IMG/VR virus record: IMGVR_UViG_3300011831_000014
Strand: one strand, 5' to 3'
DNA: 4,891 nt
Origin: a virus
Lineage: Duplodnaviria; Heunggongvirae; Uroviricota; Caudoviricetes
The notes under the pieces were generated by a model. The model saw nothing but the letters and a program-made list of their open reading frames with translations. It was not told where the DNA came from and made no database searches. A program made the translations under genes and the position numbers. Of this stretch, positions 1 to 4,891 are shown in pieces (position 1 is the first letter of the stretch; each line of letters starts with the position of its first letter).

Positions 1-698
1 TTGAGATCAAAAAAGGGCTGGTTTCGATCCAAGTATACGAAGAAACAGCGGGGATCGGACCAGGAGAGCCCGTAGAAACGACAGGCGCACCATTGTCTGT
101 CGAACTAGCACCAGGTTTGTTGACTCAGATGTTTGATGGGATGACCGATGCGCTGGGTGATTTTGTCACGACAGGCAAGGCAAATTTTCGTTCTTTCGCT
201 ACTTCCGTGATTTCGGATCTTAGTCGAATAGCATTAAAGGCTTCAATTACTGGGATTTTCGACAGCATTAGTAACAGTTCTTCTGGGGGGATTTTAGGAA
301 CTATCGGGAGTGCTATTAGTAAATTTATTCCGAATGCAAAGGGCGGTGTTTATGAGTCTCCGTCATTGAGCACGTATTCGAACGGTATTTATGATTCCCC
401 GCAATTTTTTGCTTTTGCAAAAGGGGCTGGTGTTTTTGGTGAGGCTGGACCGGAAGCCATTATGCCATTAACACGAACTTCCGATGGTTCTCTTGGTGTC
501 AGAGCTATTAATAGTAAAAGTGGTAATGGAGGCGGAGATATTACCTATGCCCCTGTATACCAAATCACTATTCAAAATGACGGCCAGAATGGAGAGATTG
601 GCCCTCAGGCAATAAAAGCACTTATGGGGATGGTTGATCAGCGGGTGCAGGGCAATCTGTTAAATATGCGACGTGATGGGGGAATGTTAAGTGGCTAA
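1..698 (+). CDS. H: Tail tape-measure protein, C-terminal portion (5'-truncated by window start); lambda gpH-like but divergent
   Basis: Open reading frame is continuous from position 3 to TAA at 696-698 with no upstream stop; the 'M' at 93 in the ORF track is a TTG codon inside the frame, not a real start. Sits immediately upstream of M-L-K-I-J. C-terminal motif ...[16 protein letters not shown]...[10 protein letters not shown] resembles the lambda gpH C-terminus as I recall it (...NDGTNGQIGPAALKAV...MRDGGLFSG). AT-rich relative to downstream genes. Confidence 0.85.
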
Positions 699-1029
699 TA
701 CGGAAGAATTTCACTGGTTACCAGAGGATGGAATGAAAACAGAAAATAAACCATCGATAAAAACTGTAAGATTTGGCGATGGTTATGAGCAACGAAGTCC
801 AAATGGACTTAATCATTCTCTGCGCGTTTTCACCTGTGATTTCAAAGTTGAGGCGAATGAACGTGATTCATTTGAAAAATTTTTAGCCCGGCATGAAGGC
901 TATAAATCTTTTTTTTGGCGCCCGCCGGGTATTAACAGAAAAATCAGAGTGGTGTGTCGAACGTGGTCAGCGACAGAACATATCACCTATACCGATTTTT
1001 CGTGTCAGTTTGACGAAGTGGTGATCTGA
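691..1029 (+). CDS. M: Minor tail (tail-tip assembly) protein M, divergent lambda gpM homologue
   Basis: 112-codon ORF beginning at GTG 691, overlapping the H stop; alternative ATG start at 733 preceded by GAGGA. Conserved VRFGDGY...KSF.W.PP...E.VV block matches gpM as recalled; size about that of lambda gpM (109 aa). Stop TGA 1027-1029 overlaps the L start (TGATG). Confidence 0.85.
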
Positions 1030-1727
1030 TGCAGGACATACAACAGGAAACGCTGAATGAATGCATTCGTGCGGAGCAGTCGGCCAGCGTGGTGCTCTGG
1101 GAAATCGACCTGACCGAGGTAGGCGGGGATCGCTACTTTTTCTGTAATGAGCAGAACGAAAAAGGTGAGTCTGTCACCTGGCAGAGTCGGCAGTATCAGG
1201 CCTATCCCATTCAGGGGAGTGGATTTGAGATGAACGGCAAGGGCAGTGCTGCCCGTCCGACACTGACGGTCTCTAACCTGCACGGCATGGTCACCGGGAT
1301 GGCGGAAGACCTGCAGAGTCTGGTCGGCGGAACGGTGGTCCGGCGTAAGGTTTACGCCCGCTTTCTGGATGCGGTGAACTTCGTCAACGGAAACAGCGAA
1401 GCCGATCCGGAGCAGGAGGTGATCAGCCGCTGGCGCATCGAGCAGTGCAGCGAACTGAGCGCGGTCAGTGCCTCTTTTGTACTGTCCACGCCGACGGAAA
1501 CGGACGGTGCCGTTTTTCCGGGACGTATCATGCTGGCCAACACCTGCACCTGGACCTATCGCGGCGATGAGTGCGGTTATAGCGGTCCGGCGGTCGCGGA
1601 TGAATATGACCAGCCAACGTCCGATATCACGAAGGATAAATGTAGCAAATGCCTGAGCGGTTGTAAGTTCCGCAATAACGTCGGCAACTTTGGCGGCTTC
1701 CTTTCCATTAACAAACTTTCGCAGTAA
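1029..1727 (+). CDS. L: Minor tail protein L (tail-tip protein with C-terminal cysteine-rich Fe-S cluster domain)
   Basis: 232-aa ORF; translation [12 protein letters not shown]...NTCTWTYRGDECGYSG...KDKCSKCLSGCKF...FLSINKLSQ is near-identical to lambda gpL as recalled. ATG overlaps the M stop. Confidence 0.95.
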   Translation: MQDIQQETLNECIRAEQSASVVLWEIDLTEVGGDRYFFCNEQNEKGESVTWQSRQYQAYPIQGSGFEMNGKGSAARPTLTVSNLHGMVTGMAEDLQSLVGGTVVRRKVYARFLDAVNFVNGNSEADPEQEVISRWRIEQCSELSAVSASFVLSTPTETDGAVFPGRIMLANTCTWTYRGDECGYSGPAVADEYDQPTSDITKDKCSKCLSGCKFRNNVGNFGGFLSINKLSQ

Positions 1728-1732
1728 ATCCC

Positions 1733-2476
1733 ATGACACAGACAGAATCAGCGATTCTGGCGCACGCCCGGCGATGTGCGCCAGCGGAGTCGTGCGGCTT
1801 CGTGGTGAGAACGCCGGAGGAGGAAAGATATTTTCCCTGCGTGAATATCTCCGGTGAGCCGGAGGAGTATTTCCGGATGTCGCCGGAGGACTGGCTGAGT
1901 GCAGAAATGCAGGGAGAGATTGTGGCGCTGGTCCACAGCCACCCCGGTGGTCTGCCCTGGCTGAGTGAGGCCGACCGGCGGCTGCAGGTGCAGAGTGATT
2001 TGCCGTGGTGGCTGGTCTGCCGGGGGACGATTCATAAGTTCCGCTGTGTGCCGCATCTCACCGGGCGGCGCTTTGAGCACGGGGTAACGGACTGTTACAC
2101 GCTGTTCCGGGACGCTTACCATCTGGCGGGAATTGAGATGCCGGATTTTCATCGCGGGGATGACTGGTGGCGTAACGGTCAGAATCTCTATCTGGATAAT
2201 CTGGAGGCCACAGGGCTGTATCAGGTGCCGTTGTCATCAGCACAACCGGGCGATGTGCTGCTGTGCTGTTTTGGTTCATCGGTGCCGAATCATGCCGCCA
2301 TTTACTGTGGTGACGGCGAGCTGCTGCACCATATTCCTGAACAACTGAGCAAACGAGAGAGGTACACCGACAAATGGCAGCGACGCACACACTCCCTCTG
2401 GCGTCACCGGGCATGGCACGCATCTGCCTTTACGGGGATTTACAACGATTTGGCCGCCGCATCGACCTTCGAGTGA
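1733..2476 (+). CDS. K: Tail-tip assembly protein K (N-terminal MPN/JAB metalloprotease-like domain plus C-terminal NlpC/P60 cysteine peptidase domain)
   Basis: 247-aa ORF starting 5 nt after the L stop; near-identical to lambda gpK as recalled. JAMM motif H-x-H-x7-S-x2-D (HSHPGGLPWLSEAD) at nt 1934-1975; NlpC/P60-like Cys (DCYTLF, codon 2093-2095) and His (PNHAAIY, codon 2291-2293). Internal ATG at 1877 with upstream GGAGGAG would give a 199-aa form. Confidence 0.9.
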   Translation: MTQTESAILAHARRCAPAESCGFVVRTPEEERYFPCVNISGEPEEYFRMSPEDWLSAEMQGEIVALVHSHPGGLPWLSEADRRLQVQSDLPWWLVCRGTIHKFRCVPHLTGRRFEHGVTDCYTLFRDAYHLAGIEMPDFHRGDDWWRNGQNLYLDNLEATGLYQVPLSSAQPGDVLLCCFGSSVPNHAAIYCGDGELLHHIPEQLSKRERYTDKWQRRTHSLWRHRAWHASAFTGIYNDLAAASTFE

Positions 2477-3015
2477 AAACGGGGTCCGAAGCCATCCGGG
2501 CGCTGGCCATGCAGATCCCGGCGTTTCGTCAGAAACTGAGCGACGGCTGGTACCAGGTACGCATTGCCGGGCGTGATGCAGGTGAAACCGAATTGTCTGC
2601 CCGTCTTAATGAGCCGCTGGAAAATGGTGCCGTGATCCATATCGTGCCGCGTCTGGCAGGAGCCAAAAGTGGCGGTGTGTTTCAGGCTGTGCTGGGGGCG
2701 GCTGTTATGGCGGTTGCTATATGGATGCCGGGGGTAGGAATTATGGCGAGTAATCTGCTGTTTTCTCTCGGTGCCAGTATGACGCTTGGCGGTGTTGCAC
2801 AGATGCTGGCCCCTAAACCCAAAACCCCCCGCACACAGACAACGGATAACGGCAAACAGAACACCTATTTTTCTTCTCTGGATAACATGGTTGCCCAGGG
2901 CAATGTTCTGCCGGTTCTGTACGGTGAAATGCGCGTGGGGTCACGCGTGGTTTCTCAGGAGATCAGCACGGCAGACGAAGGGGATGGTGGTCAGGTTGTG
3001 GTGATTGGTCGCTGA
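2374..3015 (+). CDS. I: Tail-tip assembly protein I (N-terminal ubiquitin-like beta-grasp domain, Gly/Ala-rich hydrophobic segment, conserved C-terminus)
   Basis: 213-aa ORF; translation MAATHTLPLASPGMARICLYGDLQRFGRRIDLRV...NGKQNTYFSSLDNMVAQGNVLPVLYGEMRVGSRVVSQEISTADEGDGGQVVVIGR matches lambda gpI as recalled. Start overlaps the 3' end of K by 103 nt in a different frame, as in lambda. Confidence 0.93.
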   Translation: MAATHTLPLASPGMARICLYGDLQRFGRRIDLRVKTGSEAIRALAMQIPAFRQKLSDGWYQVRIAGRDAGETELSARLNEPLENGAVIHIVPRLAGAKSGGVFQAVLGAAVMAVAIWMPGVGIMASNLLFSLGASMTLGGVAQMLAPKPKTPRTQTTDNGKQNTYFSSLDNMVAQGNVLPVLYGEMRVGSRVVSQEISTADEGDGGQVVVIGR

Positions 3016-3030
3016 TGAAAAACGTTTATG

Positions 3031-3060
3031 TGAAACCGCCTCAGGGCGGTTTTGTCGTTT
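3031..3060 (+). terminator. Stem-loop (AAACCGCC-TCAG-GGCGGTTT) followed by a T-rich tract in the I-J spacer; possible weak intrinsic terminator, attenuator or mRNA-stability hairpin
   Basis: Perfect 8-bp inverted repeat 3033-3040 / 3045-3052 with 4-nt loop, GC-rich core CCGCC/GGCGG, followed by TTTTGTCGTTT. Located in the only sizeable non-coding gap in the window. Confidence 0.3.
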
Positions 3061-3062
3061 CT

Positions 3063-3066
3063 GGAG
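3063..3066 (+). promoter_or_regulatory. Shine-Dalgarno sequence for J
   Basis: GGAG 8 nt upstream of the J ATG at 3075; a second purine-rich GAGGA lies immediately adjacent to the ATG. Confidence 0.5.
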
Positions 3067-3074
3067 CGTGAGGA

Positions 3075-4891
3075 ATGGGTAAAGGCAGCAGTAAGGGGCA
3101 TACCCCGCGCGAAGCGAAGGACAACCTGAAATCATCCCAGATGCTGAGCGTGATAGACGCCATCAGCGAAGGGCCGGTTGAAGGTCCGGTGGACGGATTA
3201 AAAAGTGTGCTGCTGAACAGTACGCCAGTGCTGGACAGTGAGGGGAATACCAATATCTCCGGTGTCACGGTGGTTTTCCGGGCAGGTGAGCAGGAGCAGA
3301 CACCGCCGGAGGGATTTGAATCCTCCGGCTCCGAGACGGTGCTGGGTACGGAAGTGAAGTACGACACGCCGATTACCCGGACCATCACGTCGGCAAACAT
3401 CGACCGTCTGCGCTTTACCTTCGGTGTGCAGGCACTGGTGGAAACCACCTCAAAGGGGGACAGGAATCCGTCGGAAGTCCGCCTGCTGGTTCAGATACAG
3501 CGTAATGGTGGCTGGGTGACGGAAAAAGACATCACCATTAAAGGCAAATCCACCTCACAGTATCTAGCATCGGTGGTGGTGGGTAACCTGCCGCCGCGCC
3601 CGTTCAATATCCGGATGCGCAGGATGACGCCGGACAGCACCACAGACCAGCTGCAGAACAAAACGCTCTGGTCGTCATACACCGAAATCATCGATGTGAA
3701 ACAGTGCTACCCGAACACGGCACTGGTCGGCGTACAGGTGGATTCGGAGCAGTTCGGCAGCCAGCAGGTGAGCCGTAATTATCATCTGCGCGGGCGCATT
3801 CTGCAGGTGCCGTCGAACTATAACCCGCAGACGCGGCAATACAGCGGTATCTGGGACGGAACGTTTAAGCCAGCATACAGCAACAACATGGCCTGGTGTC
3901 TGTGGGATATGCTGACCCATCCGCGCTACGGCATGGGGAAACGTCTTGGTGCGGCGGATGTGGACAAATGGGCGCTGTATGTCATCGGCCAGTACTGCGA
4001 CCAGTCAGTGCCGGACGGCTTTGGCGGCACGGAGCCGCGCATCACCTGTAATGCGTACCTGACCACACAGCGCAAGGCGTGGGATGTGCTCAGTGATTTC
4101 TGCTCGGCGATGCGCTGTATGCCGGTATGGAACGGGCAGACGCTGACGTTCGTGCAGGACCGACCATCAGATAAGGTGTGGACCTATAACCGCAGTAATG
4201 TGGTGATGCCGGATGATGGTGCGCCGTTCCGCTACAGCTTCAGCGCCCTGAAGGACCGCCATAATGCCGTTGAGGTGAACTGGATTGACCCGAACAACGG
4301 CTGGGAGACGGCGACAGAGCTTGTTGAAGATACGCAGGCCATTGCCCGTTACGGTCGTAATGTCACGAAGATGGATGCCTTTGGCTGTACCAGCCGGGGG
4401 CAGGCACACCGCGCCGGGCTGTGGCTGATTAAAACAGAACTGCTGGAAACGCAGACCGTGGACTTCAGCGTGGGTGCCGAAGGGCTTCGCCATGTACCGG
4501 GCGATGTCATTGAAATCTGCGATGATGACTATGCCGGTATCAGCACCGGTGGTCGCGTGCTGGCGGTGAACAGCCAGACCCAGACGCTGACGCTCGACCG
4601 TGAAATCACGCTGCCATCCTCCGGTACCACGCTGATAAGCCTGGTTGACGGAAGTGGTAATCCGGTCAGCGTGGAGGTTCAGTCCGTCACCGACGGCGTG
4701 AAGGTGAAAGTGAGCCGTGTTCCTGACGGCGTTGCTGAATACAGCGTATGGGGGCTGAAGCTGCCGACGTTGCGCCAGCGCCTGTTCCGCTGCGTGAGTA
4801 TCCGTGAGAACGACGACGGCACGTATGCCATCACCGCCGTGCAGCATGTACCGGAAAAAGAAGCCATCGTGGATAACGGGGCGCACTTTGA
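3075..4891 (+). CDS. J: Tail tip / central tail fibre host-specificity protein J, N-terminal ~605 codons (3'-truncated by window end)
   Basis: ATG at 3075 opens a frame with no stop through the window end, which is why it is absent from the ORF track. Translation MGKGSSKGHTPREAKDNLKS...VLLNSTPVLDSEGNTNISGVTVVFRAGEQEQTPPEGFESSGSETVLGTEVKYDTPITRTI... matches lambda gpJ N-terminus as recalled. Confidence 0.95.
   Translation, partial: MGKGSSKGHTPREAKDNLKSSQMLSVIDAISEGPVEGPVDGLKSVLLNSTPVLDSEGNTNISGVTVVFRAGEQEQTPPEGFESSGSETVLGTEVKYDTPITRTITSANIDRLRFTFGVQALVETTSKGDRNPSEVRLLVQIQRNGGWVTEKDITIKGKSTSQYLASVVVGNLPPRPFNIRMRRMTPDSTTDQLQNKTLWSSYTEIIDVKQCYPNTALVGVQVDSEQFGSQQVSRNYHLRGRILQVPSNYNPQTRQYSGIWDGTFKPAYSNNMAWCLWDMLTHPRYGMGKRLGAADVDKWALYVIGQYCDQSVPDGFGGTEPRITCNAYLTTQRKAWDVLSDFCSAMRCMPVWNGQTLTFVQDRPSDKVWTYNRSNVVMPDDGAPFRYSFSALKDRHNAVEVNWIDPNNGWETATELVEDTQAIARYGRNVTKMDAFGCTSRGQAHRAGLWLIKTELLETQTVDFSVGAEGLRHVPGDVIEICDDDYAGISTGGRVLAVNSQTQTLTLDREITLPSSGTTLISLVDGSGNPVSVEVQSVTDGVKVKVSRVPDGVAEYSVWGLKLPTLRQRLFRCVSIRENDDGTYAITAVQHVPEKEAIVDNGAHF

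Follow-up and report, generated by a model that had tools for sequence, protein, structure and literature searches.

Do the adjacent tail-tip genes K and I of a lambdoid virus encode a protease and its substrate, and why is the gpI protein of this virus shorter than that of phage lambda? We addressed these questions in a 4,891-nucleotide (nt) stretch of DNA (the window; IMG/VR record IMGVR_UViG_3300011831_000014, Caudoviricetes), which represents the tail-tip section of a lambdoid late operon (its L-K-I-J part) with every gene on the positive strand. Gene I sits between K, whose product carries a JAB and an NlpC/P60 domain, and J, and the K-I-J order is found in diverse other loci as well. A preliminary description of the window had named gpI and gpK a candidate processing pair in view of the JAB domain of the one and the ubiquitin-like (Ubl) domain of the other.

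Neither the gene pair nor its fold assignment nor the processing hypothesis is new to the literature: processing was predicted in 2006 and has reportedly been demonstrated since, and the proposed pair matches that prediction. Iyer, Burroughs and Aravind (2006) described a Ubl with a conserved C-terminal glycine in 'TAPI', encoded in a K-I-J neighbourhood (PMC1779556). They considered TAPI to be probably processed by TAPK, with the JAB domain freeing the Ubl at its C-terminal-most glycine (PMC1779556). According to a 2025 meeting report, the Davidson laboratory showed that lambda gpK cleaves the Ubl off gpI, and gpI is cut only after joining other tail-tip proteins, leading to ordered assembly (PMC12908700). 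Below, the structural role of the gpI C terminus and cleavage by K are taken from the literature; the present analysis supplies the gene identities, folds and motifs, the indel, the evidence for selection at the junction, and the synteny of K and I.

We put at about 85% the probability that K and I of the window are a lambda-family pair in which the JAMM domain of gpK removes the gpI Ubl during tail-tip assembly, and that the length difference from lambda gpI is a natural allele.

The Ubl domain of gpI and the JAMM domain of K

Gene I (2374..3015, + strand) was identified from its open reading frame (ORF), Pfam and alignment with lambda, and encodes 213 amino acids (aa) counted from M1. Residues 14-97 matched the Pfam family Lambda_tail_I / TAPI (PF06805) with an E value of 1e-23 (83.9 bits, cutoff 23.8), and gpI matched PHROG 32, 'tail assembly protein', at E=1.5e-83. 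The Ubl beta-grasp domain was placed at residues 14-93 (2413..2652, +). An AlphaFold2 model of residues 14-103 alone, built on a 54-sequence alignment that included Salmonella, Pasteurellaceae and Pseudomonas homologues, reached a predicted local distance difference test (pLDDT) score of 83.3 and a predicted template modeling score of 0.73. The modelled elements followed the order beta-beta-alpha-alpha-beta-beta-alpha-beta; the last six residues were disordered, with pLDDT below 50 in the tail. The model thus supports a beta-grasp/Ubl fold with MoaD, SAMP and CysO types as the closest folds. The full-length model was poor (mean pLDDT 42.8).

The layout given by Iyer et al. in 2006 was recognizable in gpI: a conserved glycine ending the beta-grasp, then a hydrophobic segment rich in Gly, and finally a small domain at the C terminus. 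Among 39 diverse family members (homologues 30-57% identical), P92 and G96 were invariant, and G101, G108, G133 and G140 were conserved. The preliminary description had likewise assigned gpI a beta-grasp N terminus, a Gly/Ala-rich hydrophobic stretch and a conserved C terminus. All three held: the first in the Pfam match and the fold prediction, the second exactly as quoted within the 213-aa ORF, and the third in 63 of the last 66 residues being identical to lambda.

The protein shares the ThiS/MoaD fold but is not a sulfur carrier: its Ubl is internal, followed by at least 110 residues, and the window contains no E1-like gene. The E1 and E2 genes that go with Ubl conjugation of the Bil, CBASS type II or SAMP kind were absent from the window.

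Gene K (1733..2476, +; 247 aa) encodes the tail-tip assembly protein, was identified by ORF and Pfam, and is named K in the record of Escherichia phage PhiR49_1. It was 93-100% identical to lambda K at the nucleotide level in most 60-nt segments. Prok-JAB (PF14464) matched residues 3-104 (1739..2044, +) at E=2.9e-14 (53.3 bits, cutoff 25). The domain was alignable to the JAMM protein 2KKS, and its closest NCBIfam model was desampylase (E=7e-7, under the model's cutoff). The complete JAMM signature E...H-x-H-x7-S-x2-D was present as E19, H68, H70, S78 and D81. The codon of the catalytic Glu19 (E-S-C-G) occupies 1787..1789 (+), and the zinc-binding motif H68-S-H70-PGGLPWL-S78-EA-D81 occupies 1934..1975 (+). 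Judged by its residues, the K JAB domain is catalytically intact. Residues 111-224 (2063..2404, +) matched the papain-like NlpC/P60 domain (PF00877; E=1.6e-12, 47.7 bits, cutoff 23), including a Cys-His-His/polar triad (C121, H187, H199/H200). Lambda gpK (TAPK) has the same two domains and catalytic residues. The overlap of I with a JAB-encoding K, as claimed in the preliminary description, was therefore borne out by the Prok-JAB match, the intact JAMM signature and 103 shared nucleotides.

We next considered how regularly the two genes occur together. Gene I loci were taken from a genome-contig scan with a 4-sequence alignment, and 41 of them, from Enterobacterales, Burkholderiales, Pseudomonas, Xanthomonas and other groups, were compared. 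Of 34 ORFs abutting gene I that were scanned with Pfam, 30 had Prok-JAB together with NlpC/P60, and the JAMM motif was found at 35 of the 41 loci. At two loci whose abutting ORF lacks the motif (L118 and L143), K lay one small gene further upstream, and at L125 the abutting K-like ORF carries a motif that deviates from the search pattern. Residue conservation was counted over the 34 abutting ORFs, about 30 of which are true K homologues. Glu19 was kept in 29, as was S78, and H68, H70 and D81 were kept in 31. Both the JAMM residues and the NlpC/P60 triad were conserved in essentially all true K homologues.

Processing of gpI by K and the alternatives

The last beta-strand, the flexible tail and the junction to the rest of gpI comprise residues 85-104, GAVIHIVPRLAGAKSGGVFQ (2626..2685, +), the predicted JAB cleavage region. 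Relative to lambda, 16 of these 20 codons differed synonymously and a single amino acid was changed. In the flanks, 11 of 16 positions (residues 69-84) and 13 of 21 positions (residues 105-125) were changed. Thus, within a divergent cassette, silent codon divergence indicates that purifying selection acts strongly on the last strand, on the tail and on the beginning of the first hairpin helix (H1). Such constraint would be expected of a region recognized and cleaved by a protease, and this sharply bounded island in a diverging cassette marks the predicted site of K recognition and cleavage. Comparison with MoaD (…PPVTGG) and ubiquitin (…LRLRGG) points to G96 (…VPRLAG) as the putative cleavage glycine, with G100-G101 as an alternative site. 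The cut would be Zn-dependent and after the C-terminal glycine of the Ubl; cleavage as such is known only from the meeting report on lambda gpK and gpI (PMC12908700).

In the mechanism that we propose, gpI would consist of the MoaD/SAMP-like Ubl (residues 14-93), a flexible Gly-containing tail (94-101), a hairpin (102-147) and a plug (148-213). The plug and hairpin would be incorporated as a trimer inside the gpJ/gpL cone, contacting the C terminus of the tape-measure protein in its lumen and sealing the tube. As an assembly factor absent from virions, gpK would use its JAMM domain to cut within the conserved tail, P-x3-G-A-K-x-G-G, once gpI has docked, which would make assembly ordered. The Ubl most likely serves the hydrophobic hairpin as a detachable aid to solubility or assembly, and may act as a chaperone or an assembly checkpoint.

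The structural data also bear on the possibility that the Ubl stays on virion gpI as a flexible domain and that the K JAB domain has another substrate or none. Residues 1-100 of gpI are resolved in no published structure, and the authors of the F-pyocin structure leave open whether the corresponding part is 'highly flexible or proteolytically cleaved'. Virion mass spectrometry yielded only one gpI peptide, with no position given, and is uninformative on Ubl retention. However, by the published description of the lambda structure 8IYK, the gpI chain becomes ordered at about residue 101 (PMC11101478), directly after the conserved GG. Direct cleavage by gpK is stated in the meeting report (PMC12908700), K and I are adjacent nearly universally with the JAMM residues intact, and the gpI tail and junction are under strong purifying selection. 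Retention of the Ubl is therefore quite improbable in our judgment.

The conservation of the second K domain bears on who makes the cut. The residues C121, H187 and H200 were conserved as well as those of the JAMM site, and K versions with NlpC/P60 alone exist in some phages (PMC1779556), as would suit a scheme in which NlpC/P60 or a host protease cuts gpI and JAB is only a Ubl-binding module. Yet all five JAMM catalytic residues are conserved, which is not expected of a module that only binds. JAMM enzymes are, moreover, known processors of MoaD-, SAMP- and CysO-type Ubls, the closest folds to the gpI domain. The meeting report credits gpK with 'a deubiquitinating domain' and then with cleavage of the Ubl, leaving the responsible domain unnamed (PMC12908700). 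We regard cleavage by NlpC/P60 or a host enzyme as very unlikely.

Related Ubl-JAMM pairs are archaeal SAMP1/HvJAMM1, mycobacterial CysO/Mec+ and eukaryotic ubiquitin with Rpn11 or AMSH. Unlike in those pairs, the gpI Ubl forms the N-terminal section of a structural protein, and the proposed cut is in a peptide bond, with no isopeptide conjugation. The window lacks E1 and E2, and the gpI tail reads AG-AKSGG and continues into a hydrophobic hairpin rather than ending in a free GG.

Removal of Bil-type conjugates by a phage JAB domain has reportedly been floated in print by Hör et al. Taken to its full extent, the idea would make K mainly a counter-defence protein that strips host Bil-type Ubl conjugates from J, its adjacency to gpI being secondary. 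Lambda genetics has nevertheless established that tail assembly requires K even where the host lacks Bil, the conserved neighbour of K carries a Ubl of its own with a constrained tail, and K is not known to be linked to Bil resistance; we find this reading extremely improbable. A milder version, in which the K JAB domain processes gpI and also strips Bil-type conjugates from J during assembly, is unlikely.

Several points nonetheless weigh against processing of gpI by the K JAB domain. Three of the 41 loci (L127, L129 and L149) had no JAB ORF in the stretch examined and kept the P-x3-G-A motif, and conservation of this motif need not reflect JAB recognition alone. The invisibility of gpI residues 1-100 by cryo-electron microscopy would fit a flexible domain that is never cleaved just as well, and the full-length gpI model is of low confidence (pLDDT 42.8). 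The only experimental statement of cleavage that we found is the conference summary; no full paper with data was found.

The hydrophobic hairpin, its length variants and the plug

The hydrophobic Gly/Ala-rich helical hairpin (H1/H2) comprises gpI residues 102-147 (46 residues; 2677..2814, +). Its Kyte-Doolittle hydropathy peaked at 2.04, and helices were placed at residues 104-117 and 122-135 in the low-confidence full-length model. In lambda, the H1/H2 helices sit in the tail-tip lumen; they are described as visible while the tip is closed, with a transmembrane prediction. They vanish once the tip opens on LamB, and their insertion into the outer membrane has been proposed (PMC11101478).

Over its full length, gpI was 84% identical to lambda gpI (TIPI_LAMBD; NC_001416 14773..15444, 223 aa), with which it shares the three-part architecture, the position between K and J, and the overlap with K. 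Residues 1-68 and 148-213 were nearly identical. The preliminary description had judged the hydrophobic stretch about 10 residues shorter than in lambda, and protein alignments gave exactly one gap: 10 residues after window residue 125 (lambda 126-135, WGAAIGAGGM), a 30-nt (10-codon) difference in the H1-H2 turn, at 2748..2749 (+). The lambda hairpin thus has 56 residues and that of the window 46.

The gap lies within a stretch of about 250 nt (gpI residues 69-142; approx. 2580..2800, +), delimited by a sliding identity profile and a codon table, where nucleotide identity to lambda drops to about 62%. Since both flanks are 93-100% identical, this is a recombined mosaic cassette and not a clean deletion. 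In P0005, a naturally occurring hybrid allele, the hairpin is 49 residues long.

The hairpin turn was a length-variable block in family alignments, including that of the 39 diverse members. When representatives at 50% identity were compared, the stretch between the GG and a conserved proline measured about 40-56 residues with a mode of 46, and every 56-residue hairpin was lambda-like. The Pseudomonas F-pyocin homologue also has 46 residues. Given this mode, it is lambda that carries an insertion, and the length in the window is typical. Counted by cluster membership, enterobacterial alleles comprised about 8,200 sequences with 48 residues, 6,500 with 56 (lambda type) and 4,600 with 46 (window type).

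We considered whether the hairpin allele is linked to the tape-measure C terminus, since gpH contacts gpI, and a locus survey led us to reject this. Of 80 viral loci with the 46-residue allele, 8 had a gpH C terminus and gpM identical to those of lambda, 4 had the window type, and the rest had other types. Because the allele combines with varied gpH and gpM, natural combinations support a tolerated indel. That the indel is an artefact or the allele of a decayed prophage was also rejected: it occurs in about 4,600 database sequences and in the isolated phages PhiR49_1 and mEp332.

The preliminary description had suggested a tolerated indel in a linker or membrane-associated segment. Tolerance stood, and the segment corresponds to the H1/H2 hairpin with its proposed membrane insertion; it is not a passive linker, the insertion is on the lambda side, and the change is part of a cassette rather than an isolated event. 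The 10-residue difference would then be a natural length allele of the H1-H2 turn on a recombining cassette, leaving the cleavage junction unaffected. It is unlikely that the 46/48/56 cassette is not neutral and tunes outer-membrane insertion or the triggering of ejection. Tolerance of lengths of about 40-58 residues at the H1-H2 turn, independent of the tape-measure and gpM partner, is useful for tail-tip engineering.

Past the hairpin, residues 148-213 (2815..3012, +) make up the plug and beta-augmentation region, assigned by lambda homology. In lambda, three copies of gpI residues 135-223 plug the tail-tip lumen; this plug props up the coiled coil at the C terminus of the tape-measure protein and is joined to gpJ through beta-augmentation, and gpK was not detected in lambda virions (PMC10721106). 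The same residues are modelled in PDB entries 8IYK, 8IYL, 8K35, 8XCG and 9E7M. From its similarity to lambda, we infer that the C terminus of the window gpI would form the same trimeric tail-tip plug.

A comparable arrangement exists in the F-type pyocin (PDB 25VF), where PA0640 is the tip plug and PA0639 the gpK homologue. PA0640 has the gpI architecture and a 46-residue hairpin as in the window; only its C-terminal part is visible in the particle, and PA0639 is absent from particles. It differs in being 37% identical to gpI and belonging to a tailocin, not a phage. The plug domain of phage T5 pb3 is likewise trimeric, closes the tail tube and has a hydrophobic segment for which entry into the outer membrane has been proposed (PMC10721106). 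That plug, however, is an insertion within the hub protein pb3 and lacks a gene of its own, a Ubl and a JAB partner.

Two database observations concern the extent of the family. Salmonella enterica homologues of gpI (P0301-P0354) were 240-251 aa long, with about 27-37 extra C-terminal residues past the point where the E. coli and lambda proteins end in VVVIGR. A 2783-aa tandem-repeat protein (P0267) that matched gpI at E=9e-26 was rejected as spurious; the match is driven by 20 short repeats like CLYGDLQRFGRRIDLRV, and the protein is not a homologue.

Gene boundaries, public records and neighbouring genes

Public records proved unreliable for both genes: lambda K is listed with 199 aa owing to a missing base in the reference sequence, and gpI appears with three start codons.

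The reference annotation of lambda K (14276..14875, 199 aa) lacks the JAB N terminus, whereas K of the window has 247 aa. We compared window positions 1733..1880 with lambda NC_001416 14133..14280 (L003 4134..4280). NC_001416 reads GAGGC-TATTT, with one G missing relative to GAGGCGTATTT or a same-length equivalent. The GAGGCGTATTT-type reading was found in the window, in OM418625 and KT232076 (two lambda derivatives sequenced independently) and in 17/17 lambda-type contigs. With the extra G restored, lambda K therefore has 247 aa, including the JAB N terminus with the catalytic Glu. The 199-aa start is still copied in several records despite an intact ORF.

Sequences of gpI and K identical to those of lambda (loci L096-L107 and L112-L117) also appeared on contigs of assemblies labelled Neobacillus, Paenibacillus, Shewanella, Bradyrhizobium, Leeuwenhoekiella, Pseudomonas, Enterococcus, Amycolatopsis and others. 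Several of these contigs were about 48.4 kb long, and several had coverage labels near 1x. They almost certainly represent contamination with lambda control DNA.

The starts in records of gene I are ATG M1 (2374, as in lambda), ATG M14 (2413) and GTG V34 (2473). Starting at M14 would give 200 aa; NCBI-named 200-aa homologues cover 94% of the gpI query, consistent with that start, and most of the distant homologues begin at the M14-equivalent position. The PhiR49_1 record uses V34 (180 aa), which would delete beta-strand 1 of the Ubl.

By ORF coordinates, K and I overlap by 103 nt (2374..2476, +), with I in the -1 frame of K. Among natural variants in codons 14-34, 10/14 were synonymous in the I frame and 14/14 were non-synonymous in the K frame; in codons 1-13, both variants (2/2) were synonymous in I and non-synonymous in K. 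Thus, the I frame dominates selection throughout the overlap. The variants at codons 1-13 are a weak hint in favour of M1 as the start of gene I.

A programmed -1 frameshift that would yield a K-I fusion was considered and rejected. Inspection of the overlap by eye revealed no X XXY YYZ slippery heptamer, and every database fusion was a singleton. In P0128, P0123, P0143, P0147 and P0002, K or its NlpC/P60 part is fused to gpI at junctions that all differ and all fall inside the K/I overlap, which suggests that the fusions are best explained as independent small deletions or sequencing errors. K-I fusion profiles also exist in PHROG families 28576 and 35166.

Among deposited phages, PhiR49_1 was the nearest, with 99.7% identity over gene I, and identical gpI sequences were present in E. 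coli and Shigella prophages. Upstream of K, the ORF list and Pfam identified the 3' end of the tape-measure gene H (up to 698, +), gene M (691..1029, +) and gene L (1029..1727, +). Lambda itself differs from the window in the tape-measure C terminus and gpM. Positions 1007..4891 were 92% identical to lambda in nucleotide sequence, and upstream of 1007 there was no nucleotide match. Amino acid identity to lambda was 28% for the gpH C terminus, 42% for gpM and 94% for gpL. With H and M unrelated to lambda in DNA and L through J about 92% identical, a mosaic joint lies at the M/L boundary.

Downstream of I, gene J, which encodes the central tail fibre, starts at 3075 (translation MGKGSSKGHTPREAKDNLKS...) and runs off the window (3075..4891, +). 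The stop codon of I and the start of J are 59 nt apart, and this gap contains a perfectly paired 8-bp stem closed by a 4-nt loop (AAACCGCC-TCAG-GGCGGTTT) at 3033..3052, followed by TGTCGTTTC; a consensus scan called no intrinsic terminator between I and J. Long antisense ORFs were present at 1005..1739 (- strand, 244 aa), opposite L, and at 4167..4886 (- strand, 239 aa), opposite J, and were assumed to be non-coding.

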